Shown here: in pieces, positions 27,081 to 62,633 of the stretch | Position numbering within the stretch: position 1 is the first letter of the stretch | How the letters are laid out: every line of letters begins with the position of its first letter | Assembly (NCBI GenBank): GCA_016926395.1 | Contig: JAFGOT010000035.1 | Span: 692 to 64,691, forward strand | Length of the DNA stretch: 64,000 nt | Source: Candidatus Woesearchaeota archaeon | GTDB taxonomy: Archaea; Nanobdellota; Nanobdellia; Woesearchaeales; SKGA01 | Direction of reading: 5' to 3' | The notes under the pieces: model-generated | The model's database searches: none | The model's input: the letters and a program-made list of their open reading frames with translations, nothing else | What the model was told of the DNA's origin: nothing | Program-made: the position numbers and the translations under genes

Positions 27081-27163
27081 TTGTCTAAAAACTCCATTTA
27101 TATATGTTTGTTTAGTTTTTTCCCAAACGTTTTTATAGCTGTTATATATAAAATATTTTGAAG

Positions 27164-36339: not shown

Positions 36340-36378
36340 GGTTTAAAAACGCGGCGTTTCTTGTTTAATTGAGTGGTA

Positions 36379-38015: not shown

Positions 38016-38020
38016 GGTGT

Positions 38021-39127: not shown

Positions 39128-39152
39128 TTATAAGCCCTCTACGCGTTGTTCT

Positions 39153-39169
39153 TTAGTTTTCTTTCAAAA
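39153..39169 (+). promoter_or_regulatory. Shared 17-nt promoter-proximal motif, copy 2
   Basis: Identical TTAGTTTTCTTTCAAAA, followed by CATTTTTAAAT, 34 nt before the epimerase ATG. Confidence 0.5.
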
Positions 39170-39202
39170 CATTTTTAAATCACTTTTCAACCTTTCATAC
39201 TT

Positions 39203-40309: not shown

Positions 40310-40315
40310 GATGTA

Positions 40316-42334
40316 ATGCTGATGATAGAAAATAAAAAAGTTTTAGTAACTGGTGGCGCTGGTGCTATTGGCAGCAATTTGGTTGCGGAATTAATAAAGC
40401 ATAATTGCACTGTTTATGTTCTTGATGATTTAAGTTCAGGATATGTTGATATTGTTCCAAACGATCCTCGAGTTCATTTAATTATTGGTAGTATTTTAGA
40501 TGATAAAATACTAGATGATATTTTTCAGAAAAAAATTGATATAGTATATCATTTAGCTGCTTTTTTTGCAAACCAAAACTCTGTTGATCATCCCGAAGCT
40601 GATCTATCTGTAAATATTTTAGGAACTTTAAAAGTATTACAGAGAGCTTCAAAACACAAAGTGCAACGATTTGTTTACACCGGAACTTCTTGTGTTTATG
40701 GAACTACAACTAATGCTATTGAATCAACAACAGATTTTCATTTAGATACTCCTTATGCCATATCTAAATTAACTGGAGAAAAATATGTTTTACAATATAA
40801 CGAACTGTATGGTTTAAGCGCAGTTGTTGTACGTTTTTTCAATTCATTTGGACCTGGAGAAAAACCAGGCAAATATCGAAATGTAATTCCTAATTTTATT
40901 TGGAAAGCAATGAATAATGAGCCTCTAACCATTTATGGTACTGGTGATGAAACTAGAGACTTTAATTGGATGGGTAATGCAGTTCAAGCCCTAATCCTTG
41001 CCGGCACTAAAGAAGGGATTGAAGGAGAGATATTTAATATTGGTTCTGGAAAAGAAACAAAAATTAAAGATTTAGCTGAAGTTATTAACAGAGTCGTTGG
41101 AAACAAAACTCCTATAGAGTATATTCCAAGACGAAAATGGGATACCATTACTAGGCGTGTTGCTAATGTTTCTAAAACAAAAAAAGTTTTAGGTTATGTG
41201 CCTGATGTTGGAGGGTTTGAAGATAAAATACGTCAAACTTATGAGTGGGTTAAAAAACATGCTCGTCCAAAACCACTAAGCTCGATAACATTAATAAGTC
41301 CACGTCCATGGCACGCACAGTGGGGTCAGGAGAAAGAATTAATTTATATCTTGAACGAACACTATAATTTATCTGTTTTAGAGTTATATGATTCTCAAGG
41401 TCATACTTCTGGTTTATCCATTCCTAAAAATACAAATGTAATTTTTAGAAAAACATCTATTAAAAACACTTTTATTCTAGGTTTATTAAATGAGTTTTCT
41501 AATCTTAGAAAAACACTTTTTTCCAAATCTAAAGTAATTATTACATATGTTGCCTCAGGTTCCATTCTAACTCTTCTTTTTGCGAGAGTTTTAGGGAAGA
41601 AAACTGTTTTTATTCTTTCAGAAGATATAGACTCGTTGCTTGGTATGAAGTCTTTCTTTTCAAAAAAAGTTTCTTCTTTTTTCACAAAAATTGCAATTAA
41701 GTTAGCAAATAAATCTGTTGGTCAAACTTACGAGCTTTGTGATTTAATTTCTAAATCAGGGAAGAAGCCAATTTATGTACCTTATGCAGTTGATATGCAA
41801 AGAAACCTTCCTTCAACTTTTGAAAACACTAATAAAATTGGTTATGTGGGTAGTTTAGGAGACTGGTTGGACATTGATTTAATAGACCACTTATTAAAAT
41901 CATTCAAAGAAAAAGAGTTTTATTTTGTTGGTGATGGTTCTAAATTTAGTGTTCTTTCCAAATTATCTAAGAAACATTCTAATTTAGTTTTAGTAAAATC
42001 AGTGGATGAATCAGAAATTGATAAACTAATAGTTTCTTTTGATGCTTGCATATTTCCATTCAAGAAATCAGCCTACACTGATAAGTTAATGCCTTTAAGG
42101 TTCTTAGATTTTATGGCACGTAAGAAAGTGGTAATCTCTTCTGATTTAAAAGAGTTAAAACGGGTTTCAAAAGATGCGTCTCTATTTTCTAAAACAAAAA
42201 GTGAATTTGTTCAAAACATTTCTAAAGTTTACAACTTAGAATTCGCTGATTCGTTGAAAAATCGAGCATTTGACTTGGCTTCTAAGTATGACATAGAGCT
42301 ATTAAGAAGTGATTATCATAAATTAGTTGAGTGA
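40316..42334 (+). CDS. Fusion protein: NAD-dependent sugar epimerase/dehydratase (SDR) N-terminal half plus a GT4/TuaH-like glycosyltransferase C-terminal half
   Basis: The N-terminal half has VLVTGGAGAIGSNL and YAISK (YxxxK). From about residue 325 onward the protein is collinear with the following 360-aa gene (PRPWHAQWGQEKELI versus PRQWNLQWGQEKDLI). Confidence 0.8.
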   Translation: MLMIENKKVLVTGGAGAIGSNLVAELIKHNCTVYVLDDLSSGYVDIVPNDPRVHLIIGSILDDKILDDIFQKKIDIVYHLAAFFANQNSVDHPEADLSVNILGTLKVLQRASKHKVQRFVYTGTSCVYGTTTNAIESTTDFHLDTPYAISKLTGEKYVLQYNELYGLSAVVVRFFNSFGPGEKPGKYRNVIPNFIWKAMNNEPLTIYGTGDETRDFNWMGNAVQALILAGTKEGIEGEIFNIGSGKETKIKDLAEVINRVVGNKTPIEYIPRRKWDTITRRVANVSKTKKVLGYVPDVGGFEDKIRQTYEWVKKHARPKPLSSITLISPRPWHAQWGQEKELIYILNEHYNLSVLELYDSQGHTSGLSIPKNTNVIFRKTSIKNTFILGLLNEFSNLRKTLFSKSKVIITYVASGSILTLLFARVLGKKTVFILSEDIDSLLGMKSFFSKKVSSFFTKIAIKLANKSVGQTYELCDLISKSGKKPIYVPYAVDMQRNLPSTFENTNKIGYVGSLGDWLDIDLIDHLLKSFKEKEFYFVGDGSKFSVLSKLSKKHSNLVLVKSVDESEIDKLIVSFDACIFPFKKSAYTDKLMPLRFLDFMARKKVVISSDLKELKRVSKDASLFSKTKSEFVQNISKVYNLEFADSLKNRAFDLASKYDIELLRSDYHKLVE

Positions 42335-43413
42335 TTTTTATGAAAAAAATATTGTTATTTACTCCGCGTCAATGGAATTTACAGTGGGGTCAGGAGAAAG
42401 ACTTAATTAATCAAATTAATACACACTATAAAATTAAAGTGATTGATTTATTTGACTATTCTGATTTGCCAAACACTTATTCGATTCCAAAAAACACTGA
42501 GTTAGTCATCAGAAAAACCAACACCAAACCTGGATTGTTATTAGGAATAAAAACAGAAATACAAAATGCCAAGCAAGCTTTGAAAAGCGATTTTAACATC
42601 ATGATTACTTATTTAACAGCCGGAACTATACTTGCATCTATTATTTCAAGAATCCGAGGTAAAAAGGTTTTATTGATTTATGCTGACGATTACCCTGAAC
42701 TTAATAGAAACAGTAGCTACGTTGGTTACTTACTAACAAAATATTTTGCTAATCCTATCTTAGCTTTAATGTCAAATAAGATTGTTGCTACAGCAAGACT
42801 TTTAGCTAAAGACATTTCAATAATGGGTAAAAAAGCAGAGAAAATACCTAATGGGGTTCACATTGAATCTTATACTTCAGATAAAAAAATAAAAAATAAT
42901 AATTATACTGTTGGCTTTGTGGGTGGTTTTGGTGAGTGGTTAGATTTTGATTTAATTATTAATGCTGCAAAAAAGTTACCTGCTGTTAATTTTGTTCTAG
43001 TTGGTGATGGACCACAATTTAATTATGTAAAAAAACAAACTAAACAATTGAAAAATGTTCGTTTAACAGGAATGATTCCAAAAGACGAAGTTGTAAAAGA
43101 AATTGATTCTATGAGTGTTTGCACTATTCCCTTCAAAGTCAATCGTCTAACTGATCGTGTTTCCCCAATAAAGCTTTTCGAATATTGGGCAAGAGAAAAA
43201 CCCGTTATTTCTACTAGCTTCTTAGAATTAAAAGAAACCGGAGAAAACATAGTTGAATTTGCAGACTCAAAAGATGATTTTCTAAATAAAATATTGTTGT
43301 TAGAAAATTTAAAATTAAGAAATGAGATTGGTGAAAAAGGAAAGAAAGAAGTTAAAAAATATGATTGGTCCTCATTAGGTAAACGTTATCTAAAAATATT
43401 GGGTGATTTATGA
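42331..43413 (+). CDS. GT4/TuaH-like glycosyltransferase (paralogue of the C-terminal half of the preceding gene)
   Basis: VGFVGGFGEWLDFDLI, FVLVGDGPQ, PIKLFEYWAREKPVIST. Confidence 0.75.
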   Translation: MIFMKKILLFTPRQWNLQWGQEKDLINQINTHYKIKVIDLFDYSDLPNTYSIPKNTELVIRKTNTKPGLLLGIKTEIQNAKQALKSDFNIMITYLTAGTILASIISRIRGKKVLLIYADDYPELNRNSSYVGYLLTKYFANPILALMSNKIVATARLLAKDISIMGKKAEKIPNGVHIESYTSDKKIKNNNYTVGFVGGFGEWLDFDLIINAAKKLPAVNFVLVGDGPQFNYVKKQTKQLKNVRLTGMIPKDEVVKEIDSMSVCTIPFKVNRLTDRVSPIKLFEYWAREKPVISTSFLELKETGENIVEFADSKDDFLNKILLLENLKLRNEIGEKGKKEVKKYDWSSLGKRYLKILGDL

Positions 43414-44234
43414 TGTTACAGTTAGCTAAAGAAGTTGTTGTGAACTTGTTATTTTCAAAACATTACTTCAATAAAAAAATAATTCAGAAATCAAAAAACG
43501 CCTCTAAACCTAAATTTATTTTATCTTTTGACCCTGATGAAGAAAATGATATAAAAAGAATACCTTGGTTATTAGAACTTCTAAAAAAGTATAATATTAA
43601 AGCCAGCTTTGCAGCGATTGGTATTTGGGTGGAAAAATATCCTTTAATCTTTAAACAAATAATCGATGAAGGTCACGAATTAATAAACCACACTTATTCA
43701 CATCCTGATAACCCTGATCTAAACCCCTATAAACATTTTAATAAAATAAGTTCTCAAGAAAGATTTAATGAAATAAAAAAATGTGATGAAGTTGTTTTTG
43801 AGTTATTAAAATATAAAATGAATGGTTTTAGAATACCTCACTTTGGTAATCAGTTTATCGAAGATATTTACCCAATGTTGGAAAAACTAAATTATTCTTT
43901 TTCATCTTCTACATTAGCTATTAAATCAGGAACTGGCGGCGATCCTTACATGGTTGGAAATATAAAAGAGTTTCCTATAATGAATTGTCCAAAGCACGCT
44001 TATTGTATCTTTGACACTTCTCATGCTTTTAGGGCTAAGATTGTTAAACATTCTCCTGATGATTTTATTAATACCTTTAAAGACTTATTATCCATTTCCA
44101 AAAAACATAATCTTTTTCTAAATCTATATCAAGATCCTCAAGATTTGCATAAATTTGATTATGAAAAATTTCTAAAATTAATTGATAAAAACAGGTCACA
44201 CTTCGATATTGTTGTTTATGGTGATATTCTATGA
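43410..44234 (+). CDS. Polysaccharide deacetylase (NodB homology, CE4)
   Basis: SFDPDEE (the TFDD-like motif) and INHTYSHPD (HxxxH). Confidence 0.8.
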   Translation: MMLQLAKEVVVNLLFSKHYFNKKIIQKSKNASKPKFILSFDPDEENDIKRIPWLLELLKKYNIKASFAAIGIWVEKYPLIFKQIIDEGHELINHTYSHPDNPDLNPYKHFNKISSQERFNEIKKCDEVVFELLKYKMNGFRIPHFGNQFIEDIYPMLEKLNYSFSSSTLAIKSGTGGDPYMVGNIKEFPIMNCPKHAYCIFDTSHAFRAKIVKHSPDDFINTFKDLLSISKKHNLFLNLYQDPQDLHKFDYEKFLKLIDKNRSHFDIVVYGDIL

Positions 44235-45385
44235 AAAAAAATAAAATATTAGCTGTCTTTCCTGTTGGAAATATTGATCAATATTTAAAAAAAGGCGAGT
44301 TTAAGAGGCGATATTTTAATCCTGATAATTATTTTGATGACGTTCATTTGTTTAATTTATCAAGCAAAGTATTTTCTGAAGAGGAAAAAACAAAAATCTC
44401 TTTAATGACGGGTAATGCCAAATTGTTTATTCATAGTTTGGGCGATTATTCTTTCAAAAAATCTTTTTTATTTAGACATAAACTTGCGAGAAAAGCCAGC
44501 CATATTCTAAAAGGTGTAAACCCCTCTGTTATTCGTTCATATGGGAATTCAATTGAAGGATATCTTGGAATGTATTGTGCTAAAAAACTACATATTCCTT
44601 TCATTTTATCAATGCACACTCATATGGAAAATGATCATCGAGTTCTTCCAAGGATAGACAAAGAGTATTCTAAGTTCATTTTTTATTCGTTATGGAAACC
44701 TATCGAGAAAAAGATTTTATTTAGCGCAGATATTATTCTGTGTGTTTACAAATATACTCAGTCATACGTTTTGTCAATGGGGATCTCAAAAAACAAAACA
44801 AGACAAATGTATAATCGAGTTTATTTAGATCAATATAAGCCCCTTCCTGATTTAAGAAATAAAGAATTTACATTAATTAATGTTTCAAATATGACTGTCG
44901 GTAAAAATCAAGGAACTTTGATTAAAGCAGTTGCTCCTATTAAAGATGTTAAGTTAATTCTTGTAGGTTCTGGACCTGAATTTAATAATTTTAAAAAATT
45001 GGCTAATAATTTAAATGCAGATAATGTGGAATTTATACCCAAAATAAATAATGAAGACCTTCCAAAGTATTATAATAAAGCTCATGCTTTTATAACTGCT
45101 ATACGACATGGAGGGATAGGAATTCCTCCATTAGAAGCAATGGCTTGCGGTCTTCCAATTATAACTCCAAAACCATTGTTTGAAAGAACACCTGAGCTTG
45201 TTGGCGATATTGCTTTAGTTCCAAAGAATGATCCTGAATCATTTAGAAAAGCAATATTAAAACTAAAAAACAATCCTTCTTTGCAAAAAGAGATGTCAAA
45301 AAAATCTTTAGAATTAATGAAGACAATTTCTGGAGATAAAATGGAACACTATGAAAAATCAGCGTATGAGGAGGTTACTAGATGA
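44231..45385 (+). CDS. Glycosyltransferase family 4
   Basis: LILVGSGPE and GGIGIPPLEAMACGLPIITP. Confidence 0.8.
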   Translation: MKKNKILAVFPVGNIDQYLKKGEFKRRYFNPDNYFDDVHLFNLSSKVFSEEEKTKISLMTGNAKLFIHSLGDYSFKKSFLFRHKLARKASHILKGVNPSVIRSYGNSIEGYLGMYCAKKLHIPFILSMHTHMENDHRVLPRIDKEYSKFIFYSLWKPIEKKILFSADIILCVYKYTQSYVLSMGISKNKTRQMYNRVYLDQYKPLPDLRNKEFTLINVSNMTVGKNQGTLIKAVAPIKDVKLILVGSGPEFNNFKKLANNLNADNVEFIPKINNEDLPKYYNKAHAFITAIRHGGIGIPPLEAMACGLPIITPKPLFERTPELVGDIALVPKNDPESFRKAILKLKNNPSLQKEMSKKSLELMKTISGDKMEHYEKSAYEEVTR

Positions 45386-46548
45386 AAAAAAACATTCTGA
45401 TGGTTTTAGGAAATGATTTGCTAAAACCACATGTAGATAATAGGGTGTTAAAAGAAGCTGAATCATTAATTAAATCTGGTTATTGTGTTTCTGTTCTTTG
45501 TCGTTCTCCAAATAATTTGCCACGTAATGAAGTTTATAACAAAATAAATGTATATAGGTTATCCAAAAAAAATTTATTAGGATGGTTTGTCGGCGCTGTT
45601 TTTTTTATTAAACGATTTTTAAGAAAAAATAAAGTTGATTTGTTGCATTGTCATGATTTAGGAGGATTTATTGTTGGTTCTTTGTTCAAATTGTTTGTAA
45701 GACGAAAGACTAAAGTTATTTATGATGCACACGAATTAGCATCCGAAATGTTTCAACCAAAAATAATTAACAAAACAGCTTCATTTCTAGAACATTTGTT
45801 TTTGCCTCTCGCATCAGGATTAATTGTTACTAACACTGATAGATTGGGAGTTATGAAACAAAAACATTCTATCTTAAAGTCCTTTAAACCAATACTGGAA
45901 TTGCCTAATTATCCAAAAAAAGAAGTTGTTAGTTTTTCTTCAAAAGAATTTATCTCTAGTTTAAGAAAAAAATACTTAATTCCTTCTTCTGGTAAAATCT
46001 TTGTTTATCAAGGTCCTTTAAGTTTTGAGAAAAGAGGAATTAATACTTTAGTTAGTGCGTTTATGAAACTAAATTCTTCTGATTGCTTGATTCTTATAGG
46101 TGGCCAAAATAGTAATTTAGAAAATTTGATTCAATCTAATCCATCTAAAGGAAAAGTCATAATTATTCCTTGGCTTTCTCAAAAAGAATTATATGGTGTA
46201 ATGTCTTTATCAGATTTTGGTGTTGTGGCTTATAAGAATATTTGTTTAAATAATTATTATTGTGCTCCAAATAAAACCTATGAATATATGGCTTCTAACT
46301 TGGCTATAATAGGGTCTGATTTTCCTATATTTAAAAGAGAAGTTTCAAATAATAATATTGGTTTTAATGGTTCTTTTGATTCTGAAAAACATTTGCTAAG
46401 AGCATTAAAAAAAGCATCTGCTGTTTCAAAACAAGAATTAGCTGATATGAAATCACGTTCTAAACAGTTATTTGATAAGCAATATAATTGGGAAATATTA
46501 GATCCTTCTTTTTTCAGATTCTATGAAGAGGTGTTATTTAATGATTAA
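45382..46548 (+). CDS. Glycosyltransferase family 4
   Basis: GT-B fold signatures, with NKTYEYMASNLAIIGSD at the E(x7)E position. Confidence 0.75.
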   Translation: MKKNILMVLGNDLLKPHVDNRVLKEAESLIKSGYCVSVLCRSPNNLPRNEVYNKINVYRLSKKNLLGWFVGAVFFIKRFLRKNKVDLLHCHDLGGFIVGSLFKLFVRRKTKVIYDAHELASEMFQPKIINKTASFLEHLFLPLASGLIVTNTDRLGVMKQKHSILKSFKPILELPNYPKKEVVSFSSKEFISSLRKKYLIPSSGKIFVYQGPLSFEKRGINTLVSAFMKLNSSDCLILIGGQNSNLENLIQSNPSKGKVIIIPWLSQKELYGVMSLSDFGVVAYKNICLNNYYCAPNKTYEYMASNLAIIGSDFPIFKREVSNNNIGFNGSFDSEKHLLRALKKASAVSKQELADMKSRSKQLFDKQYNWEILDPSFFRFYEEVLFND

Positions 46549-46575
46549 TTTTTTTAAATTTAATGAGGTCTTAAA

Positions 46576-47265
46576 ATGAAATTGCCTTTGTTTGTTTCTA
46601 AATTAGTTTCGAAAGTTGTTATTTATTTTAAGTACAGAATTCACAACTCTAAGATATCTTCTAATGCAAAAATATTTCCTTTTGATAATGTTGTTTTAGG
46701 AAAAAATGTTTCTGTTGGGGAAGGTGCTGTGTTATCAGGTAATTTGTTTGTTGGGGATTACACTCACATAAATAGAAATTGTGATTTTAGTGGTGGGAGA
46801 AGTGTTGATGTAGTTTTAGGAAAGTTTTGTTCTGTTGCATCTGGAACATCAATAATAAATTCTAACCATTACACTAATAGAATAACGACGTACGGTATTA
46901 AGGAAGAACTAGGTTTAAATTGTAAAAAGAAGGACTATTATGAAAAAGGACCTATTACAATAGGTAATGACGTTTGGATTGGTCGTGATGCAATTATTCT
47001 TTCAGGAGTGAGAATTGGTAATGGTGCAATTGTTGCTGCTTCGGCTGTTGTTTCCAAGGATGTTGATGACTATGAAATTGTTGGTGGCATTCCTGCTAAA
47101 CACATAAAGTACAGATTTTCTGAAGAGGTTAGAACGTTATTATTATCTTTAAAATGGTGGGATTGGTCAGAAAAGAAAATACGTGATAATAGTTTAATTT
47201 TTGATTTGGATTTAACTAACCAAGATGATATAAAAAAGTTGAGAGATATTGTTAATAAAAAATGA
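46576..47265 (+). CDS. Hexapeptide-repeat acetyltransferase (xenobiotic/Vat-CatB-like)
   Basis: IGNDVWIGRDAIILSGVRIGNGAIVAASAVV..GGIPAK, then the WWDWSEKKI tail typical of this subfamily. Confidence 0.8.
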   Translation: MKLPLFVSKLVSKVVIYFKYRIHNSKISSNAKIFPFDNVVLGKNVSVGEGAVLSGNLFVGDYTHINRNCDFSGGRSVDVVLGKFCSVASGTSIINSNHYTNRITTYGIKEELGLNCKKKDYYEKGPITIGNDVWIGRDAIILSGVRIGNGAIVAASAVVSKDVDDYEIVGGIPAKHIKYRFSEEVRTLLLSLKWWDWSEKKIRDNSLIFDLDLTNQDDIKKLRDIVNKK

Positions 47266-48644
47266 CTTCGTTTCACCAATCTTTGGAGTACGCTAAAATA
47301 TATGAACACAACTATTTATACTCCTGGGGTCAAAAAAGTGGAGTTTTATTTTTGAGAGGTGTAAATCCCAATTTATTCTTAAAACAACGTTGGTTGGGAA
47401 AACTATTTTATCCTTTATTAAAATTAATATCCTACAATTTAATAATTTTAGATGTTAAAGAATTACCAGATTCTTTTTATGATTTTTTTTCAAAAAAGTC
47501 ATATTCCTCAATATTGTTATCGCCGGATTTTAACTCTGGATTATTAACTTTGGATGAAAAATTAGTTTCCAATGAAGGGTTTGTGAAACAAAAGAAAGCC
47601 ACTGTTATTTTAAATCTAGAGAAGTTTGATTCTTTTGAATCTTATTCTAAAACTCTGAACAAGTCGTTATTAAAATCAATAAAGAAAGCAAATTCTAGTT
47701 TAACTTTTTTTAAAATAGATTCCATAAATGACTTAAAAAAAGCTTATTCTTTAGTAAAGCAAACTAATAAACGTAACTCTATAAGAATATACAATTCTTT
47801 TTCATCTTATAAGTATTTATTTTCTCGAAGTTGTATTGATTTTTATGCTGTTCGTGATAATGATAAATTATTGTCTTTACAAGGCGTAATCAAGTATAAT
47901 CGTCATGTTAATCTTTTTTCTGTAGCGAGTTCTGACTATGCTATTAAAAACAAAATTAATGCGAACGATTTTTTGCAGTATAAACTAATTGAAACTTGTT
48001 TTTTTGAACGAATTAAGTCGATAGATTGGGTGGGTTTTTCAGGTAAATCTACCGGTAAAGAAGCTTCTATTGATAAATTCAAACTAAAATGGAAAGGGGA
48101 TGTTATTAATTATTTTGAATACAGAAAAGCTAATAAGAGTCTTTTCTTTTCTTTCTTAAGAAAGATTTTTTCTTCAAATTCTTCAAACACTTATGATGTT
48201 AAATCCGCAGAGCCACTTTCATTGAAAGACGAAATTGAGAATTCCTCTTTGCCTTACAAAGAGGTATTATTGAATCAGTTTTCATTTTTGGATAAAAATT
48301 ACGCTTTGAGCAACAAATTTGATTTAGATTCTTTAAATACTGTTTTGAATTTTGCCAAGAACAATGGCATTTCTAATCATCGCATAATTGATTTTTTAGT
48401 TTCTTTTTTTAACACAGGTGATATGAACTTATCTTTTTCAAATATTAAAGTTAGTGATGACGCGATATCCAAAATACAAGCCATCATTGATGAAAATATT
48501 GATTTTATTAGACGAGAAGGCAAACATTCTTTTGGAAAGATAATCTCCATTTGTAAAAAAAGCTTAGGTCGAGATTTTGATGGCAAGAAAGTTTCTGAAA
48601 TGTTAACGAAACAATTAAATGGGTTAAAAAATGAAAAATTATAA
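47262..48644 (+). CDS. FemABX-like (Acetyltransf_6/GNAT) transferase fused to a GatB/YqeY-like C-terminal domain
   Basis: The N-terminus FHQSLEYAKIYE plus the central block (FYAVRDNDKLLSLQG...FSVASSD...NDFLQYKLIE...IDWVGFSG) resemble Fem-family proteins. The last ~115 aa (NGISNHRIIDFLVSFF...VSDDAISKIQAIIDENIDFIRREGKHSFGKIISICKKSLGRDFDGKKVSEMLTKQL) follow the GatB/YqeY tail pattern. Confidence 0.55.
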   Translation: MTSFHQSLEYAKIYEHNYLYSWGQKSGVLFLRGVNPNLFLKQRWLGKLFYPLLKLISYNLIILDVKELPDSFYDFFSKKSYSSILLSPDFNSGLLTLDEKLVSNEGFVKQKKATVILNLEKFDSFESYSKTLNKSLLKSIKKANSSLTFFKIDSINDLKKAYSLVKQTNKRNSIRIYNSFSSYKYLFSRSCIDFYAVRDNDKLLSLQGVIKYNRHVNLFSVASSDYAIKNKINANDFLQYKLIETCFFERIKSIDWVGFSGKSTGKEASIDKFKLKWKGDVINYFEYRKANKSLFFSFLRKIFSSNSSNTYDVKSAEPLSLKDEIENSSLPYKEVLLNQFSFLDKNYALSNKFDLDSLNTVLNFAKNNGISNHRIIDFLVSFFNTGDMNLSFSNIKVSDDAISKIQAIIDENIDFIRREGKHSFGKIISICKKSLGRDFDGKKVSEMLTKQLNGLKNEKL

Positions 48645-49284
48645 ACGAATACGTTCACTTTGGACTGAAAACGCACCTCATCTTTGGTGGGGTGATCCTC
48701 TGGATGTCCGGTTCTTTTTGTGCGAAGAGTTATCTCGCTTTAAAAATAAGAACGTATTGGATGTGGCATGTAATGCAGGTATTGTTTCCTCATTGATGAC
48801 TCATTGTGATGTTACTGGAGTGGACATTAATAAGGATGCCATTGACGTTGCCCGCCGGATTAATCCTTCCTTCAAATATTTTGTTGCTGACATATTTAAA
48901 TTAAATAATCTTTTTGAAAACGAGTCATTTGATATAATTATTCTATCACATGTTTTACCAAAAGACAATTTTCCTTCAGAAAAATTTCCGATTGAATTAA
49001 TGGATGTTATTTTTCCTTTATTAAAAAAAGGAGGTATATTGTTTATTACTACCCCCAATCCAGCTCGTGCATTCAACGGGAAAAACAAGTTTATTAATGA
49101 TGTTTATTTAACTCATTTGCTTAATAGGTATAATTTGCGTTATGACTTAAGGTATTGGTGTAAATGGAACATACATTTAAATCATCTATTCAAGTTTATA
49201 CCTAACATTTGGAATTTGCTAATAAGTATGAGTTTTAAAAAAGGAAGGAGTGTAAGTTTTTATGTTAAAGCAATTAAAAAATAA
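48631..49284 (+). CDS. Class I SAM-dependent methyltransferase
   Basis: VLDVACNAGI, DIIILSHVL, LKKGGILFITTP. Confidence 0.75.
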   Translation: MKNYKRIRSLWTENAPHLWWGDPLDVRFFLCEELSRFKNKNVLDVACNAGIVSSLMTHCDVTGVDINKDAIDVARRINPSFKYFVADIFKLNNLFENESFDIIILSHVLPKDNFPSEKFPIELMDVIFPLLKKGGILFITTPNPARAFNGKNKFINDVYLTHLLNRYNLRYDLRYWCKWNIHLNHLFKFIPNIWNLLISMSFKKGRSVSFYVKAIKK

Positions 49285-50191
49285 TCTAATATGGTTTATT
49301 AACTTATTAGACAAGAATTTTCACTTACACATATTTCCAAGAGATCGAATTTTTTCTCTAGACTCTAATGATTTGGTTATTTTTAAGAATAGAAAACTTG
49401 TTTTAAACACGAACCGTTATGGATTTGACATGTTCTATTTTTGTTGTTCTTTTGATTACTTAAATGAACATTATTTTTGTTTTCAAGCATCCAAGTTGAA
49501 TAAAGATCTTTCTCACTCTTCGTTTATTTGTATCATTGATTCAAAAAATAACCTTGTTAAAAAAATATCTGCTAAAGAATTAGGTTTTTCATCATTTTCT
49601 TCGTTACAGGTGTTAGTTGATGATAAACCAATCTTATATTTCTGTGCAGACAATAACAAACAATTTTCATTATATTCTTTGATTTTGGAAGATATTGGTT
49701 TATATTCAAAACCTACTTTGTTACGAAGGGATATTTTTCAGTTCAGTATTTTTAGCTTTAAAAATAAATTTATAATAATTTACAAAAAATCTAATGATAC
49801 TTCTTTGAATGCCGTGAAAACTGCCGACTTTTTACATTTTTCAGATTGGAAACTAAATTTAATAACTGCTGAAGATTTTGTTTTTATTGATAATCCATCC
49901 ATTGTACAAAATGATTCAACTATACATTTATTTTGTAGAATTTCTCATCATAGTGCCTTAGAATCTAATATAATATCTTTCACTTCTTCAGATGCGCATA
50001 CTTTTAATCAGTCATCTGTTAGATTGTTACCTTTACACAATCGTTATGAACGACATTCTACCGCTTTTCCATTTGTTACAACTTTTGATGGTAAATTTCG
50101 TCTATATTATACAGCTTATTGGGGATTTCATTTGTTGAATAAATTAACAATAAAGAGATGGGTTAATAATAAACGTTCTTCAGGTAAATAA
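49262..50191 (+). CDS. Hypothetical protein (possibly a beta-propeller glycosidase/transferase-like fold)
   Basis: 309 aa with weak resemblance (FPFVTTFDGKFRLYYTAY) to 5-bladed propeller sugar enzymes. It is embedded in the glycan operon. Confidence 0.4.
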   Translation: MLKQLKNNLIWFINLLDKNFHLHIFPRDRIFSLDSNDLVIFKNRKLVLNTNRYGFDMFYFCCSFDYLNEHYFCFQASKLNKDLSHSSFICIIDSKNNLVKKISAKELGFSSFSSLQVLVDDKPILYFCADNNKQFSLYSLILEDIGLYSKPTLLRRDIFQFSIFSFKNKFIIIYKKSNDTSLNAVKTADFLHFSDWKLNLITAEDFVFIDNPSIVQNDSTIHLFCRISHHSALESNIISFTSSDAHTFNQSSVRLLPLHNRYERHSTAFPFVTTFDGKFRLYYTAYWGFHLLNKLTIKRWVNNKRSSGK

Positions 50192-50192
50192 A

Positions 50193-50870
50193 ATGGTAAT
50201 TAAAAAATTAAAGATTTATGGTAAGTTGGCTAATCGCGAGAGTTTGAAAGATTACATTTCTAAAATAAAAAACAATCCTAACACTCTAAAATTGCGTGTA
50301 TTAAAGCATGTTGCTTCTAATATGGCTGATGTTCATTTTTTAGATGTTGGTGCCCAAATGGGTGCTTACCTTTTTCATCTAAGCAAAGAGAATAATTTCA
50401 AACAGCTTGATGGTATTGATATTGAACCAGAATTTATTTCTCTTGGGAATAAATATTTAGTCAATGGGCTTGATAATGTAAACTTGTCTTTGACAAATCT
50501 ATTTGATATTAATAATAAGAAATATGATTTAATTTTTATGTCCGAAGTTATTGAGCATGTTGATAATCCTTTAGCTTTTATTACGAAAATATATTCTTTA
50601 CTTGAGGCAGGGGGACACTTTGTAATAACCACGCCTTCAGGTAATAGTCTAACAAATATACTTTTGAATATTAAGCATTTTAAAGATTTATCTTATATTG
50701 AGAATGAAAAAAGAGGTTTTGGCACGGAAACAGACCATTATTATTGTTGGGACAAATTGACTTTATTCCGTCTTTGTAATAGTGTTGGTTTTAAGTATGT
50801 TGACCATCGCATCTCAAATCGTTTCAGACCTATAAAAGGTCAATCAATCATCTTAATTGTTAAGAAATAA
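50193..50870 (+). CDS. Class I SAM-dependent methyltransferase
   Basis: FLDVGAQMGAY, DLIFMSEVIEHVDNP, GGHFVITTP. Confidence 0.75.
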   Translation: MVIKKLKIYGKLANRESLKDYISKIKNNPNTLKLRVLKHVASNMADVHFLDVGAQMGAYLFHLSKENNFKQLDGIDIEPEFISLGNKYLVNGLDNVNLSLTNLFDINNKKYDLIFMSEVIEHVDNPLAFITKIYSLLEAGGHFVITTPSGNSLTNILLNIKHFKDLSYIENEKRGFGTETDHYYCWDKLTLFRLCNSVGFKYVDHRISNRFRPIKGQSIILIVKK

Positions 50871-52341
50871 ATTTTGATTTTAATTCTTTTATTTCTTTAA
50901 CTGTAACTGTTTTGGTTGTTATTAATATTGAACAGTAAATTATAGCAAGAACCAAAACAAATAATGCTCCAGAAATTAAATTATTAATTTTGAACTGTGA
51001 ATTAATTATGATTCCTATTGCTGTGGTTATTGCTCCGATAAAAATTACTAGAAAATGACCTTTATTAAATGTAACTTTTGTTTTGCTTTTAACGTGAATA
51101 AAACCAAGTACAAACATTAATGTGTACCCAATTACTGTTGTAATTGCAGCTCCTTTAAGCCCTAATGCAGGTATTAACAAAAGATTTAGCAAAAAGTTTA
51201 TTGCTCCTCCGAAAAGAGTGTACTGAGCAATTTTTTTTGTTTCACCTATTGCAAACAAAACATTGAAATTGGTCGTTGATAAAAGACCCATTAATCCTGC
51301 AAAAATTAATATTTTTAATACGGCACCTCCTGCGATATATTGTTTACCGAAAAGAAGGATTACTATTTCCTTTGATAGTATTGTTATTATTCCAACCAAT
51401 GGTAATGTTACCAACAATAAGTATTTGTAGATTTGTTCAATTCCTTCCTTGAGATGTGTATACATTTTTTTTGCCCACAACTCAGATGTCATAGGTATCA
51501 TAACTGTGCTAACTGCGGTACTGACATATATTAGAATACTTGATATTGGAACTGCAGAATTATATATTCCAACGTCTGACGTTGTTTTTAGTATTGAAAT
51601 CATAAATGTATCTATGTTTTGCAGAAGTAATCCGCCTAATGATGCAAATATTGTTGGAAGTCCAAAAGTCCAAAGTTGTTTTGTTATTGATTTATTTTTG
51701 TTTATTCTTTTTATTTTTGGAATTAATTTTTTTCCAAACCATGAAAAATAGAGAACTAACAAAGTCAATGAAGTTATTATATATGAGAATATAGGTGCTT
51801 GGATTTTAAGACCAAATTTTAACAATGGTATGACTATTATCAGTGACAAAATTTGTCTGATGAATTGAAATGAGGCATACTTAAAATGTTTTTGAAATGC
51901 AGTTAATATTTGTGCCATTGTTTGATCAATTCCTTGAAACAAAAACAACAAACTGAACAATCTAACTTCAAAAACAAGTTCCACTGAGTGAAGATAGTGT
52001 ATTGCAATATATTTGGATAATATCAATGCTGAGGTAGCCAAAACAACACTGGTGGCACCAATAATTTTGACGCAATAATTAAACACAATTTTAGCTTCAG
52101 ATAATTTTTCATTCGCAATATATTTAGAGATATAAGTGACCAACGCTTGACCCATGCCAAGTCCTCTAAATAAAAACAATAATGACATAAATGCATAAAG
52201 TGAATAAAATAATCCATACTCTTCAACGGTTAAATTTCTTGCTAAGACCATTCTATAAACATAACCTATAACTGCACCTAGCATAGTCATTAAGAATACC
52301 CAGAAAAATCCTTTAACTGCTCTTTGAGTATAGTTTGTCAT
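50860..52341 (-). CDS. Oligosaccharide flippase (Wzx/MOP superfamily, AglR-like)
   Basis: 493 aa with about 12-14 TM helices and the typical polysaccharide biosynthesis protein architecture. It is convergent with the plus-strand glycan operon (11-nt overlap). Confidence 0.85.
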   Translation of the reverse strand: MTNYTQRAVKGFFWVFLMTMLGAVIGYVYRMVLARNLTVEEYGLFYSLYAFMSLLFLFRGLGMGQALVTYISKYIANEKLSEAKIVFNYCVKIIGATSVVLATSALILSKYIAIHYLHSVELVFEVRLFSLLFLFQGIDQTMAQILTAFQKHFKYASFQFIRQILSLIIVIPLLKFGLKIQAPIFSYIITSLTLLVLYFSWFGKKLIPKIKRINKNKSITKQLWTFGLPTIFASLGGLLLQNIDTFMISILKTTSDVGIYNSAVPISSILIYVSTAVSTVMIPMTSELWAKKMYTHLKEGIEQIYKYLLLVTLPLVGIITILSKEIVILLFGKQYIAGGAVLKILIFAGLMGLLSTTNFNVLFAIGETKKIAQYTLFGGAINFLLNLLLIPALGLKGAAITTVIGYTLMFVLGFIHVKSKTKVTFNKGHFLVIFIGAITTAIGIIINSQFKINNLISGALFVLVLAIIYCSILITTKTVTVKEIKELKSKFIS

Positions 52342-52342
52342 T

Positions 52343-53446
52343 TCATTCCTCTATAATATTTTCAAACTTCTCAATAGTTTTTGTCCAATCAAAGTTGTTC
52401 TTCACTTTCTCTTTTATTTTTTTAGAAAATTCGCTTCTTAGTTTTTTATTTTCTAATTTTTTCAATGCTTTTTTTATTTCATCAACACTTTTAGACTTAA
52501 TTAATATTCCATTGATACCATCATCTATTATTTCATTTGTTCCACCAACGTCTGTTGCTATTATTGGCAAACCTATCGCCCCTGCTTCTAGTACGCTTGT
52601 CGGTAGTCCTTCTGAGTATGATGGGTTTACGAAAATATCTGACTCGCTTAGAATTTTAATTATTTCTTTTTGATTTTTTTGTCCTAAGAAATTAACTTTA
52701 ACTTTTAACTTGAAACTTAACTTTTCTAATTCTTTTTTATATGGTCCTTCGCCAACAACATTCAACACATAATCTTTTCCTTTTACTGCTTCTATTATGT
52801 GTTGTATTCCTTTGGCATATATTAATCTTCCAACATATGTTATTGTAGTTTTCTTATTCTTTTCACTTTTTATTTTACTAAATTGACTTGTATGTATTGA
52901 ATTATGTATTGTTGTTGTTTTTTTAGCTCCTAGTTTTTTTGAGAAAGAAACGCATTTTTTTGAAATTCCAACAACCAAATTTGCTTTGCTAATAACAAAA
53001 CGTCCTAATGTCTGATCATATATCCATGCAGCTATTGTTACAATAGGGTTTTTATGTGTTACAAACTTATTTCCATGCTCTATGTGTATAAATTTAGATT
53101 TCATTTTTTGAGCTAATTTAAGCCCAATAAATGTGCTTGTAAAGAAGCGAGTGTTGGTTATAACAACATCATATTTTTCATTTAATATTTTTTTTCTTAA
53201 TTTTTTATATTCAAAACTAAACACTTTAGGAATTGAGTATGTGTCCCCAAGAATTTCAAAACAAGGAAGGCGGATTATGTTTATATTGTTTTTTTTCTCA
53301 AATTCTTTTAGTTGTTTGTATTGAAATGTGAGAACATCAACTTTGTTACCTTTCTTGGCAAGTCCGTTTGATAGTTCTAATGCAAACTTTTCTAGTCCTC
53401 CAACGTATGGATAAAAATGATTAGCAACAATCAGTATTTTTTTCAA
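52343..53446 (-). CDS. Glycosyltransferase family 4
   Basis: N-terminus ILIVANHFYPYVGGLEKF and C-terminus SEGLPTSVLEAGAIGLPIIATDVGG. Confidence 0.85.
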   Translation of the reverse strand: MKKILIVANHFYPYVGGLEKFALELSNGLAKKGNKVDVLTFQYKQLKEFEKKNNINIIRLPCFEILGDTYSIPKVFSFEYKKLRKKILNEKYDVVITNTRFFTSTFIGLKLAQKMKSKFIHIEHGNKFVTHKNPIVTIAAWIYDQTLGRFVISKANLVVGISKKCVSFSKKLGAKKTTTIHNSIHTSQFSKIKSEKNKKTTITYVGRLIYAKGIQHIIEAVKGKDYVLNVVGEGPYKKELEKLSFKLKVKVNFLGQKNQKEIIKILSESDIFVNPSYSEGLPTSVLEAGAIGLPIIATDVGGTNEIIDDGINGILIKSKSVDEIKKALKKLENKKLRSEFSKKIKEKVKNNFDWTKTIEKFENIIEE

Positions 53447-53465
53447 TTTTGTTTTCCCCTAAGGT

Positions 53466-53813
53466 TCATTTCTTTTTTTCTTTCTTATCAACTTCTTTGT
53501 ATGCGATTGTTCTTACTAATTTTTCTAGTTTGTTTTCCGTTTTGTTTACTTTTTGATGTAAATAAAACATTAAAACCAAGAAGAACGCAAAGCCAATTAG
53601 TGTTAGAAAGTCTATTGTTCCTGTGACGCTTAGTTTACCGCCCACTCCTGATATTATTTGAGGAAATATTGATAAAATAATCACTATCAGCCATATTCCT
53701 CCCCAGAGTGCTAATCCTTGTTTGCTAGTTTGGTTTCTTTTAAACCCATGAAATGTTAGGTAAAACATTGCTAATGCAAATAATATTCCCAAAATTTGTA
53801 TTCCAAGTACCAT
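53466..53813 (-). CDS. DUF2304-like small membrane protein
   Basis: 115 aa with 4 TM helices. It lies directly downstream of a GT2 gene, which is the usual partner arrangement. Confidence 0.65.
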   Translation of the reverse strand: MVLGIQILGILFALAMFYLTFHGFKRNQTSKQGLALWGGIWLIVIILSIFPQIISGVGGKLSVTGTIDFLTLIGFAFFLVLMFYLHQKVNKTENKLEKLVRTIAYKEVDKKEKKK

Positions 53814-53823
53814 TTTTTTAGTT

Positions 53824-54522
53824 TTACTTTCCTCCTAGTAGTTGTATTGCTTTCCATTTGATCATTTGAATTAATATTTTGATTCCGTGTATTGGGGTAG
53901 TTCCTTTGTAATTATCTAAGTATATTGTTTTTATTGGTATCTCTTTATATTTTAATCCCTTTGCGTTGACTATCATTTCTGTTTCCATACCATATAGCTT
54001 AGATTCCCATCGCAACTGTTTGTACACGTTTCTTCTAAATGTTCTAAAACCTGATTGTGTGTCTCTAATTTTTGCTCCAAACATTATACGAACCAACCAC
54101 GTTAATCCCCAGTTTCCAACACTCATTAGAAATGGAGATTTTCCTTCAGAAGTCCTATATCCATACACTATGTCTGTGTTTTTTAGCGCTTCTAGAAATC
54201 TTGGTATATCTTCTGGTTCGTGTTGTCCGTCCGAATCCATCAGAATAAAGATATTGTATTTTTCTTTGTAAGCAAAGTCACAACCTGTTCTTGCCGCGTT
54301 ACCTTTTCCAAGATTTATTATGTGTCGCAAGACAACGTCTGCTTTTGATTCTTTTGCAATCTTTGAGGTATTATCTGCACTTCCATCATCGATAACTATG
54401 ATTTCTAGGTCTAATTTATTTTTTAGAGAAACATGTTTTATTCTTTTTATTACTTCAGAAATGTGTTTTTCTTCATTCCATGCAGGCATAATAACTGCTA
54501 TTTTCTTTGCCATGACAACCAC
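53824..54522 (-). CDS. GT2 dolichyl-phosphate sugar synthase-like glycosyltransferase
   Basis: IAVIMPAWNEE, VIDDGSADNT, MDSDGQH (DxD). Confidence 0.9.
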   Translation of the reverse strand: MVVMAKKIAVIMPAWNEEKHISEVIKRIKHVSLKNKLDLEIIVIDDGSADNTSKIAKESKADVVLRHIINLGKGNAARTGCDFAYKEKYNIFILMDSDGQHEPEDIPRFLEALKNTDIVYGYRTSEGKSPFLMSVGNWGLTWLVRIMFGAKIRDTQSGFRTFRRNVYKQLRWESKLYGMETEMIVNAKGLKYKEIPIKTIYLDNYKGTTPIHGIKILIQMIKWKAIQLLGGK

Positions 54523-54604
54523 ATAACTAGACTTACTTAATAATTCTTTTAAAAATAAAATGAAGGTAACTTCTAGAATCTGTTACCTTTGTTTTTGTAT
54601 TTAA

Positions 54605-62498: not shown

Positions 62499-62633
62499 TC
62501 AAGAGGGACGTTTTGTCTCCACTTGAAAATGGTTAATATTCGAAACATTTAAATAAGCCTATATGTTCTTTGGACATAACTAAGGCTTGATATTAATAAA
62601 TAAACGCAAGTAAAAGTTTAGGGAGGATTTAAA

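Follow-up and report, generated by a model that had tools for sequence, protein, structure and literature searches.

A Fem-type transferase with a GatE/GatB-like tail in an archaeal glycan operon: a candidate for tRNA-dependent aminoacylation of a glycan sugar

Enzymes of the Fem type withdraw aminoacyl-tRNA from translation for use in peptidoglycan, lipids and a few antibiotics; to our knowledge, no member acting on polysaccharides or protein-linked glycans has been demonstrated, nor any in Archaea. N-aminoacyl sugars are, as far as we know, widespread in bacterial O-antigens and nonulosonic acids, mostly without an assigned enzyme. The tail of GatB and GatE binds the D-loop of tRNA, and Deinococcus GlnRS binds tRNA better thanks to an appended YqeY domain; we know of no job for this type of module other than holding tRNA. 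A comparable job has been proposed for the helical arm inserted in S. aureus FemA and FemX. In Methanococcus, AglU/MMP1084 was reportedly implicated, by the genetic work of Ding et al. in 2013, in the threonine modification of ManNAcA6Thr.

The chemistry proposed below, with a sugar amine as acceptor, is that of Orf11, Sbb17 and Sba18 (PDB 9WQW-9WQY), which are Fem-like, depend on aminoacyl-tRNA and aminoacylate streptothrisamine on its amino sugar (PMC12945691). Unlike the protein studied here, these belong to bacterial antibiotic pathways, are about 310 aa long, lack a tail and act on a small-molecule, aminoglycoside-like substrate. The FemAB family XrtA/PEP-CTERM system-associated proteins (TIGR03019) are also Fem-like and encoded in (exo)polysaccharide loci, and their function is likewise only predicted; they differ in being bacterial and tail-less and in having no link to AglB, and our protein scores under the TIGR03019 model. 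MprF/aaPGS (PDB 4V34-4V36, 5VRV, 6LV0, 7DUW) is a further tandem-GNAT, aminoacyl-tRNA-dependent, envelope-modifying enzyme, but it acylates a lipid hydroxyl, carries a membrane flippase domain and is only remotely akin in sequence. Finally, the N-glycans of M. voltae and M. maripaludis carry threonine in amide linkage to C-6 of (Man)NAcA (PMC11407970, PMC2952790), which corrects an earlier note on this DNA that knew of no description of such chemistry for archaeal N-glycans. There, too, an amino acid sits on an AglB-dependent N-glycan, but the linkage is the opposite one, from the amino group of threonine to a sugar carboxyl, and lies beyond Fem chemistry; an exhaustive phmmer search found no full-length relative of our protein of the Methanococcus type.

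We analyzed a gene in a stretch of archaeal DNA of 64,000 nucleotides, hereafter the window, which has a GC content of ~29%. The reading frame is open over 460 codons, and its start ATG shares an ATGA with the stop codon of the gene upstream. Its sole full-length relative (P0002) is collinear with it over aa 1 to 449, with conserved residues near the N-terminus (F4, Q6, S7, Y10 and G33-N35-P36-N37-L38). Because this alignment begins at residue 1 and the ATGA overlap fits the same codon, the 460-aa start is correct, which means that the protein collection's record of 416 aa (P0001) is too short. The gene is a genuine two-domain gene, with a Fem core (aa 1-300) and a tail (aa 333-454). The coordinates of these parts and of the surrounding genes are collected in Table 1.

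Table 1. Features of the Fem-type gene and its neighbourhood, in positions of the window.
Feature	Position	Strand	Basis or remark
Fem-type transferase with GatE/GatB-like tail, whole gene	47262..48644	+	460 aa plus stop
N-terminal GNAT lobe, shortened (aa 1-100)	47262..47561	+	AF2 pLDDT 53-77; gaps in family alignment
C-terminal GNAT lobe of Fem core (aa 101-300), best-conserved part	47562..48161	+	pLDDT 86-98
F273-K274, F-K motif, whose lysine is catalytic or binds the aminoacyl group in Fem enzymes	48078..48083	+	Conservation and alignment
Ser/Asn-rich, low-confidence linker, Fem core to tail (aa 301-332)	48162..48257	+	pLDDT <50 at aa 306-319; unconserved relative to P0002
All-helical tail (aa 333-454) apparently related to GatE/GatB/YqeY C-terminal tail	48258..48623	+	NCBIfam; Pfam below gathering score; AF2
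Last tail helices (aa 399-452), most clearly GatE-like segment	48456..48617	+	Aligned to 2d6f_C 558-615
14-gene glycan operon including the Fem gene	36373..50870	+	Junctions from 23-nt overlap to 75-nt gap
DegT-type sugar aminotransferase, alternative candidate source of acceptor amine	38021..39127	+	Pfam DegT 4.7e-120
Polysaccharide de-N-acetylase, candidate maker of acceptor sugar amine	43410..44234	+	Pfam Polysacc_deac_1 5e-18
Hexapeptide-repeat acyltransferase, translationally coupled to Fem gene	46576..47265	+	Pfam Hexapep 3.4e-13; stop overlaps Fem start
SAM methyltransferase, 14-nt overlap with Fem stop	48631..49284	+	Pfam Methyltransf_31/23/11
309-aa protein without Pfam match, like GH130-like C-terminal half of P0050	49262..50191	+	phmmer E=5.5e-20
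Second SAM methyltransferase, final plus-strand operon gene	50193..50870	+	Pfam
Convergent genes: Wzx-type flippase, GT4, DUF2304, GT2, AglB/STT3	50860..57388	-	Pfam Polysacc_synt 3e-32, STT3 4e-34 and others
AglB/STT3	54605-57388	-	Pfam STT3 4e-34

Neither the whole protein nor its N-terminal 290 aa matched a Fem family in Pfam (PF02388, PF13480), even at E<=10, and its best direct sequence match in the PDB was Sbb17/Sba18 over aa 234-288 (E=0.22). Its relatives, however, place it: an exhaustive phmmer search returned 149 of them, and among 33 sampled, 26 matched PF02388 (FemAB), 25 PF13480 (Acetyltransf_6), 26 TIGR03019 and 22 the FemX model, while P0002 itself passes PF13480 (26.2 bits, GA 22). 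The family profile found S. aureus FemX (FemX_Sa) in the PDB at 1e-28, FemX_Wv at 1e-22, Sbb17/Sba18 at 3e-21 and FemA at 6e-16. Thus, by transitive and profile searches rather than by a direct Pfam match, the protein is assigned to the Fem (FemABX) homologues, which bears out the Fem/Acetyltransf_6 likeness that the earlier note had read in its N-terminal ~290 aa; the motifs cited there are present as well (FHQSLEYAK at aa 4-12; NDFLQYKLIE...DWVGFSG at aa 235-260).

The phmmer matches in the E range of 1e-22 to 1e-3 are all confined to aa ~100-300. The N-terminal lobe, which we take to be the acceptor-binding lobe as in FemX, is ~50 aa shorter than in typical relatives, aa ~100 pairing with aa ~145-175 of relatives of 340-370 aa; its F-x-Q-S-x-x-Y-A motif is common to the window protein, P0002 and P0003, the last being the closest syntenic homologue of the gene. 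In the C-terminal lobe, F273 and K274 are each conserved in at least 90% of 67 sequences and align with the FK of Sba18 and the FK of FemX_Sa. K274 is probably equivalent to K305 of FemX_Wv and K329 of DhpH-C (PMC12945691), an assignment to be read with the alignment to FemX_Wv ending 5 residues short of K305. Compared with FemX, FemA, FemB and MurM (PF02388; PDB 1NE9, 4II9, 6SNR, 1LRZ), the window protein thus has the tandem-GNAT fold and the F-K motif in common, with profile homology of 1e-16 to 1e-28, but it differs in lacking a direct Pfam match, in its shorter N-lobe, in its GatE-like C-terminal tail and in its archaeal glycan locus. The coiled-coil arm of the S. aureus enzymes is missing from the window family, as it is from FemX_Wv, and the alignment to FemX_Sa skips residues 235-312.

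The AF2 model of the full-length protein (pLDDT 81.7) supports the tandem-GNAT Fem fold that had been proposed for the core, with the N-lobe modelled at lower confidence. Its best Foldseek matches were FemX_Wv (6e-14, with a target-normalised TM-score of 0.66 across 338 columns), Sbb17/Sba18 (1e-12) and MprF (1e-9). The best 26 neighbours are all aminoacyl-tRNA-dependent transferases (FemX_Wv, Sbb17/Sba18, MprF/aaPGS and FemX_Sa), and acetyl-CoA-using tandem GNATs, such as VipF and the clavulanate tandem GNAT, rank below them.

The tail matched the C-terminus of two NCBIfam models of GatE, NF003107 at E=1.2e-7 (over positions 499-626 of its 630) and TIGR00134 at E=6e-7, in both cases over the last ~128 model positions. 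In Pfam it stayed under the gathering scores of PF02637 and PF09424: GatB_Yqey aligned with aa 346-452 (E=0.0017-0.006) and YqeY reached E=0.0015, with 17-19 bits where GA is 27. Furthermore, aa 399-452 aligned with residues 558-615 of M. thermautotrophicus GatE (2d6f_C) at a Smith-Waterman score of 66 (z=10.4), a score that none of 5000 shuffles reached. Over aa 351-450 the full-length AF2 model consists of helices only (pLDDT ~76-87). When the tail was modelled alone from a two-sequence alignment (all-helical, pLDDT 73.6), Foldseek found no structural neighbour; a two-sequence tail profile found neither GatB nor GatE in the PDB, and the tail of P0002 by itself matched no family. Judged by the significant collinear match, the tail appears to be homologous to the C-terminal tail of GatE, so that the earlier reading of a GatB/YqeY-type tail holds for the GatE C-terminus but without a score above the Pfam cutoff and without support from Foldseek. 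Unlike GatE and GatB themselves (PDB 2D6F, 1ZQ1), the window protein has neither the amidotransferase cradle nor the catalytic domains, and its tail is about neutral in charge, with 20 K+R and 19 D+E and no marked net positive charge.

The fusion, which the earlier note had not known from elsewhere, is very rare: a survey of 1.84 billion representatives found a single collinear relative, P0002. Two further Fem relatives carry GatE-like tails, P0030 clearly and P0119 faintly (E=0.046). The short tail of P0030 matched the GatE C-terminus at E=1.1e-6 (z=13.5) and had GatE as its best PDB match (E=0.026), and it was acquired independently of that of the window protein. P0003, in locus L004, has no tail, so the tail must be dispensable for the basic function of the family. 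Other fusions join the Fem domain to a methyltransferase (P0061, P0144) or to Glyco_hydro_130 (P0050); they mirror the gene order of the window and tie the Fem family to sugar-modifying partners.

These observations bear on whether tRNA is used at all. The structural neighbours and the GatE-like tail suggest that aminoacyl-tRNA would be the donor. An unlikely alternative is an acyl-CoA-dependent tandem-GNAT N-acyltransferase that moves an acetyl or other short acyl group to an amino sugar without tRNA, with a tail that serves to form oligomers, to associate with the membrane or to bind a partner. In its favour, PF13480 is listed as an acetyltransferase (GNAT) domain, acyl-CoA is the substrate of some tandem GNATs, VipF and the clavulanate enzyme are among the lower Foldseek matches, the tail fell short in Pfam and Foldseek, and the tail-less P0003 fills the same syntenic slot. 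However, the best matches in both sequence and structure are all aminoacyl-tRNA-dependent, and the F-K motif typical of Fem enzymes has been retained. The tails of the window protein and P0030, two independent Fem relatives, are significantly similar to the tail with which GatE binds tRNA, and two hexapeptide acyltransferases are already available in the operon for acetyl transfer.

We also analyzed the genomic setting of the gene. As had been noted before, it lies between acetyl- and methyltransferases, a hexapeptide acyltransferase upstream and two methyltransferases downstream. The first of these methyltransferases is 52% identical to the one 3' of P0003 in L004, and the second 38% identical to the one 3' of P0002 in L001. 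The cluster as a whole holds five stand-alone GT4 genes, a GT4 domain fused to an SDR, and a GT2 with DUF2304, as well as DegT, 2-epimerase, deacetylase, acyltransferase (including the two hexapeptide ones of the operon) and methyltransferase genes. With genes for an oligosaccharyltransferase, a flippase, glycosyltransferases and sugar modification grouped together, it has the gene content of an AglB-dependent N-glycosylation cluster, as the earlier note had put it; the uronic acids also claimed there depend solely on WbpB/D/E-like genes, which are typical of 2,3-diacetamido uronic acid pathways, and the cluster has no UDP-sugar 6-dehydrogenase. Because AglB is encoded on the opposite strand ~6 kb away, the putative N-glycan destination follows from adjacency only. 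The window also contains an archaeal SecY gene and an intron-containing tRNA, which together with AglB mark the host as an archaeon, and a GH3-type carboxylate-amino acid ligase is encoded elsewhere in it (25503-27080).

The glycan setting recurs among relatives: seven of eight informative loci are glycan loci (the window, L001, L002, L005/6, L007, L009 and L013), with methyltransferases, GT4 genes, Wzx flippases, DegT aminotransferases and de-N-acetylases as recurrent members. De-N-acetylases adjoin Fem relatives in L001 (PIG-L), L005 and L009 (PF01522, faintly in L009), and DegT genes in L002, L009 and L013; P0010, in L010, lies outside any obvious glycan locus. Mur-type ligases or other Mur-type genes were absent from the window genes examined, in line with the lack of any sign of a peptidoglycan or pseudomurein pathway remarked on earlier. 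With its archaeal host and a locus devoted to glycan rather than peptidoglycan, the enzyme would therefore use an acceptor other than a peptidoglycan precursor or MurNAc-peptide.

On balance we consider it somewhat probable that the gene product is a Fem-type aminoacyl transferase that works in the cytoplasm and independently of the ribosome, with aminoacyl-tRNA as donor and a sugar nucleophile of the operon's glycan precursor, most likely a free amine, as acceptor; donor, acceptor and transferred amino acid, like the binding of tRNA to the tail and the N-glycan as final destination, are inferred. The tRNA-dependent glycan aminoacylation of the earlier note thus stands as the best-supported function. 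Since aminoacyl-tRNA carries the activated carboxyl of the amino acid, it can react only with a nucleophilic acceptor (amine or hydroxyl), and of the two acceptors named in that note only the amino sugar fits, an option backed by the recurrence of de-N-acetylases and DegT aminotransferases near family members; Fem chemistry does not allow an amide with the carboxyl of a uronic acid. In the proposed mechanism, an amino acid would be moved from aminoacyl-tRNA to a sugar of a nucleotide-linked or dolichol-linked glycan precursor, giving an N-aminoacyl amino sugar, the acceptor amine being made by the operon's de-N-acetylase or its aminotransferase. The Fem core would hold both the acceptor and the tRNA's aminoacylated 3' end, with K274 as the likely key lysine, and the helical tail would dock on the tRNA body at the D-loop/elbow, as the tails of GatB and GatE do, adding affinity or tRNA selectivity. 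Capping or methylation of the product by the hexapeptide acyltransferase and the methyltransferases encoded alongside may follow, after which the finished glycan would be flipped and put on protein by AglB.

The acceptor could differ in three ways. Esterification of a sugar hydroxyl by aminoacyl-tRNA, as MprF does with phosphatidylglycerol, is a minor possibility: MprF/aaPGS domains rank high among the structural neighbours (E about 1e-9) and hydroxyl nucleophiles can be used by enzymes of the Fem superfamily, but the closest matches in sequence and structure, FemX and Sbb17/Sba18, acylate amines, and it is amine-generating enzymes that recur beside family members. Rather improbable, too, is an acceptor that is no glycan, for instance a peptide in the cross-bridge of a pseudomurein-like or different cell wall, the head group of a lipid, or a small metabolite, with the location in the operon incidental. 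Characterised Fem enzymes do use peptidoglycan precursors or natural products (PMC12945691), and P0010 lies apart from glycan genes, but the window gene is translationally coupled on both sides inside a 14-gene glycan operon, glycan loci predominate among its relatives, Mur-type ligases were missing from the window genes examined, and members of the family are fused to methyltransferase and GH130-like domains. An amide with the C-6 carboxyl of a uronic acid is very improbable, for although such amino-acid amides are known in archaeal N-glycans (PMC11407970, PMC2952790) and WbpB/D/E-like genes are at hand, the reaction would have to run opposite to the Fem mechanism (PMC12945691), with the sugar acid activated and the free amino acid attacking as the nucleophile, the 6-dehydrogenase is absent from the cluster, and the GH3-type ligase would be the more plausible catalyst.

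Transfer to a sugar amine, the reading we prefer, can be extended to a bolder and more tentative one, in which an archaeon, possibly one of the DPANN type, would draw directly on charged tRNA for the decoration of its protein N-glycan: a Fem transferase with a tRNA-docking tail captured from GatE, the archaeal Glu-tRNA(Gln) amidotransferase, would N-aminoacylate a de-N-acetylated or aminated sugar of a dolichol-linked glycan, and the amino acid would then be methylated or acetylated by co-transcribed enzymes. The argument from sequence is unusually explicit, combining tRNA-dependent best matches, a fused tRNA-holding module and an AglB-linked operon beside amine-making enzymes. If true, tRNA-dependent modification would be seen for the first time on a protein-linked glycan, a route to N-aminoacyl sugars would be explained, and the large uncharacterised TIGR03019-like Fem clade in bacterial and archaeal polysaccharide loci would gain a function. 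Translation and the glycosylation of the cell surface would also be connected in a new way.

The Fem-tail gene (coordinates of this and other features are tabulated below) is an ORF of 460 codons in a region of ~28-29% GC, and a chance ORF of this length is very unlikely at that composition. It is about the tenth gene in a close-set run of 14 on the plus strand; its ATG and the stop codon of the preceding hexapeptide acyltransferase gene share the sequence ATGA, and the next gene overlaps its own stop by 14 nt. The database version of the protein, P0001 (416 aa), begins at residue 45 (47394 vs 47262). P0002, the only full-length relative, aligns from residue 1, with F4, Q6, S7, Y10 and G33-x-N-P-N-L38 conserved. 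This alignment rules out the 416-aa call as too late and, together with the ATGA overlap, shows that the 460-aa start is correct.

Features of the window and of two related loci
Feature	Location	Strand	Description
tRNA gene	19473-19605	+	133 nt; Rfam 42.7 bits
GH3-family acyl-acid amido synthetase	25503-27080	-	Pfam GH3 N/M/C domains 4.7e-55; weak OlsH match
Ribonucleotide reductase gene pair	27158-28948, 29193-31472	+	NrdJ-like, adenosylcobalamin-dependent; adjacent, divergent
Glycan operon	36373-50870	+	14 genes
Operon start, in order		+	WbpB-like oxidoreductase, hexapeptide acyltransferase, DegT aminotransferase, UDP-GlcNAc 2-epimerase
Operon middle, in order		+	SDR-GT4 fusion, GT4, PF01522 de-N-acetylase, GT4, GT4
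Operon end, in order		+	second hexapeptide acyltransferase, Fem-tail gene, methyltransferase, 309-aa unknown, second methyltransferase
SDR-GT4 fusion	40316-42334	+	672 aa; NAD-dependent sugar epimerase/dehydratase aa 9-306, GT4-type domain aa 506-639
Fem-tail gene	47262-48644	+	460 aa
N-terminal lobe of Fem-tail protein	47262-47561	+	aa 1-100
309-aa ORF	49262-50191	+	no Pfam match
Apparent functional module	47262-50870	+	Fem-tail gene to end of operon
Convergent genes facing operon		-	Wzx-type flippase, GT4, DUF2304, GT2, AglB/STT3
Putative surface proteins	59877-63923	+	873-aa PKD-domain protein, then 429-aa protein
P0061 gene	L013 1567-2937		Fem + SAM methyltransferase
P0030 gene	L002 10001-11332		443 aa; Fem + GatE-like tail

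Neither the whole protein nor its N-terminal 290 aa gave a Fem match when scanned directly with Pfam, and the N-terminal 300 residues were likewise not recognized directly by NCBIfam. Among 1.84 billion representatives, searched exhaustively with phmmer, there were 149 relatives, nearly all of 320-370 aa and matching window residues ~100-300 with E-values of 1e-22 to 1e-3. Sampled relatives matched PF02388 FemAB (26/33), PF13480 (25/33), the PEP-CTERM-associated FemAB model TIGR03019 (26/33) and FemX (22/33). Compared with the PDB, a 67-member family profile found S. aureus FemX (1e-28), Weissella FemX (1e-22), Sbb17/Sba18 (3e-21 and 3e-20) and FemA (6e-16). The AlphaFold2 model built on the 67-member alignment had a mean pLDDT of 81.7, with values of 86-98 over residues 101-290 and lower confidence in the N-terminal lobe than in the rest of the Fem core. 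Its best Foldseek matches were FemX_Wv (6e-14), Sbb17/Sba18 (~1e-12) and MprF/aaPGS domains (~1e-9), along with FemX_Sa and FemA. Each of these enzymes depends on aminoacyl-tRNA, and tandem GNATs that use acetyl-CoA were placed below them. Together, the Pfam and NCBIfam matches of the relatives, the PDB profile matches and the predicted fold bear out the Fem core proposed in the earlier note: residues 1-300 form a tandem GNAT of the Fem type.

F273-K274 is nearly invariant across the family alignment and lines up with the F-K of Sba18 and FemX_Sa. In FemX_Wv (K305) and DhpH-C (K329) the lysine of this motif is the key residue (PMC12945691), and we infer that K274 is the residue-for-residue equivalent of FemX_Wv K305. 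Most relatives have an N-terminal lobe ~50 residues longer than that of the window protein, a shortening that P0002 and P0003 (the closest Fem homologue) share with it, and, in contrast to S. aureus FemX and FemA, the window family has no coiled-coil arm. The shortened acceptor-binding lobe could mean that the enzyme uses another acceptor, perhaps linked to a lipid.

The tail is preceded by a Ser/Asn-rich, disordered linker (pLDDT <50 at residues 306-319) and is all-helical in the AlphaFold2 model over residues ~333-454. In Pfam it matched GatB_Yqey (E=0.0017) and YqeY (E=0.0015) under the gathering score of each, but the two NCBIfam GatE models gave more convincing matches over their final ~128 positions (E=1.2e-7 and 6e-7). 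Furthermore, aa 399-452 aligned to the very end of M. thermautotrophicus GatE (2d6f_C 558-615) with a Smith-Waterman score of 66; shuffled sequences averaged 22.9 (sd 4.1), and none of 5000 scored as high. Foldseek with a model of the tail alone (pLDDT 73.6) found no structural neighbour in the PDB, and a two-sequence tail profile retrieved neither GatB nor GatE from the PDB, only weak FtsY N-domain noise. The very divergent P0002 tail, taken alone, had no match in Pfam or NCBIfam and matched only the window tail (z=6.8). P0072, a 1268-aa DUF11/DUF7507-repeat protein that matches window aa ~365-412 nine times through a repeated 'NLSNIQVSDD.LGSITNIID' string, was judged a chance or repeat artefact and rejected as a tail homologue. 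On sequence grounds the tail is probably a GatE/GatB-type domain, in line with the GatB/YqeY-type tail of the earlier note.

The full collinear architecture was found elsewhere only in P0002 (472 aa, 28% identity), on a 5-kb metagenome contig. Word-index searches for homologues, whether started from the protein or from the two-sequence alignment, gave nothing beyond the window protein itself and P0002, and two scans of genome contigs and one of metagenome contigs confirmed no relatives. P0030 (FemAB 3e-12) carries a shorter tail that matches the GatE C-terminus (E=1.1e-6), with GatE as its best PDB match and a tail pairwise z of 13.5; this tail was gained independently and lends independent support to the window tail assignment. 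Counting the window protein, P0002, P0030 and possibly P0119 (504 aa; faint GatE-tail signal, E=0.046), Fem + GatE-tail fusions make up three or four of the 149 listed proteins, and a literature search found no paper in which YqeY was paired with Fem terms. P0003 (36% identity) is tail-less but syntenic with the window gene: the GT4 upstream and the methyltransferase downstream of it are 42% and 52% identical to those of the window. The tail is therefore accessory to the enzyme and not required. The P0030 gene is high-GC (57%) and lies in a nonulosonic-acid-type locus with NeuB, DegT, a PseB-like dehydratase, HisH/HisF-like genes, a radical SAM gene, a TagF-like gene and Wzx; P0030 may aminoacylate the amine of a nonulosonic acid.

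Fem-like proteins in polysaccharide loci have already been catalogued (TIGR03019). Of the seven loci of relatives for which flanking DNA sufficed, six were glycan loci (L001, L002, L005/6, L007, L009 and L013; seven of eight with the window), the exception being L010. Methyltransferases, GT4s, Wzx, DegT and de-N-acetylases recur in them, the last as PIG-L in L001 and as PF01522 in L005 and, faintly, in L009. Two relatives, P0061 and P0144, are Fem + SAM methyltransferase fusions whose domain order matches the gene order of the window, L001, L004 and L005, an arrangement suggesting that the Fem product is the methyltransferase substrate. The P0061 locus also encodes Wzx, DegT, a UDP-sugar dehydrogenase and a GT4. 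A further relative, P0050 (670 aa), joins Fem to a Glyco_hydro_130-like domain in its C-terminal half, to which the 309-aa ORF is homologous (phmmer E=5.5e-20). P0050 therefore provides a Rosetta-stone tie between this ORF and the Fem gene two genes upstream, and the ORF may encode a phosphorylase-like or GT108-like sugar transferase. As fusions elsewhere mirror the window gene order, the block from the Fem-tail gene to the end of the operon looks like a single functional module. To our knowledge, the Fem-like proteins of polysaccharide loci under TIGR03019 are functionally uncharacterised.

The position of the gene within an AglB-linked glycan operon was confirmed, with AglB/STT3 on the convergent minus strand. 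Although WbpB/WbpD/WbpE-like genes are present, whose products normally act on uronic acid, no UDP-GlcNAc/UDP-glucose 6-dehydrogenase was found in 36373-57388, so the uronic acid synthesis asserted in the earlier note is only implied. A UDP-sugar 6-dehydrogenase is encoded in the related loci L009 and L013. The host is an archaeon, as judged from AglB, an archaeal SecY and an intron-bearing tRNA; the length of the tRNA gene allows an intron and is consistent with an archaeal host. Downstream, the 429-aa protein matches the NCBIfam model 'PACE-CTERM putative S-layer protein' (2e-27, under cutoff), and it and the PKD-domain protein are likely surface glycoprotein substrates. By its name, this model may point to a DPANN/Pacearchaeota-like host. 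GH3-family enzymes ligate amino acids to carboxylates with ATP, the kind of chemistry required to amidate a uronic acid with an amino acid, and the GH3-family gene lies ~9 kb upstream of the glycan operon.

The best explanation of these data, to which we give slightly better than even chances, is that an enzyme with a GatE-derived tRNA-docking tail N-aminoacylates an amino sugar of the glycan in an aminoacyl-tRNA-dependent reaction. Because the tRNA ester already activates the carboxyl of the amino acid, a sugar amine is the expected acceptor, with a sugar hydroxyl less likely. The free amine would be supplied by the de-N-acetylase or the aminotransferase of the operon, and an amino sugar fits well because amine-making enzymes are present there and recur beside relatives. 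In GatB and GatE the tail contacts the D-loop of the tRNA, and Deinococcus GlnRS carries a YqeY domain as an added module for tRNA binding; the window tail would, by analogy, grip the body of the tRNA. Fem enzymes take the aminoacyl group off the 3' end of the tRNA and pass it to an acceptor nucleophile, and the Fem-like Orf11/Sbb17 offers a precedent in the Gly-tRNA-dependent aminoacylation of the amino sugar of streptothrisamine (PMC12945691). More speculatively, the coupled acyltransferase and methyltransferases may modify the added residue. An amide to a uronic acid carboxyl, which the earlier note had also entertained, is incompatible with Fem chemistry and is ruled out, as this bond needs an activated sugar acid.

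Archaeal N-glycans bearing an amino acid are known, namely ManNAcA6Thr in Methanococcus (PMC11407970, PMC2952790). Its linkage is the opposite of the one proposed here and could not be made by Fem chemistry. Ding et al. 2013 reportedly implicated M. maripaludis AglU/MMP1084 genetically in threonine attachment. The observation of the earlier note is confirmed and, with the linkage and the known Methanococcus N-glycans corrected, its interpretation is largely right; it predicts that archaeal glycan decoration is linked directly to charged tRNA, which can readily be tested.
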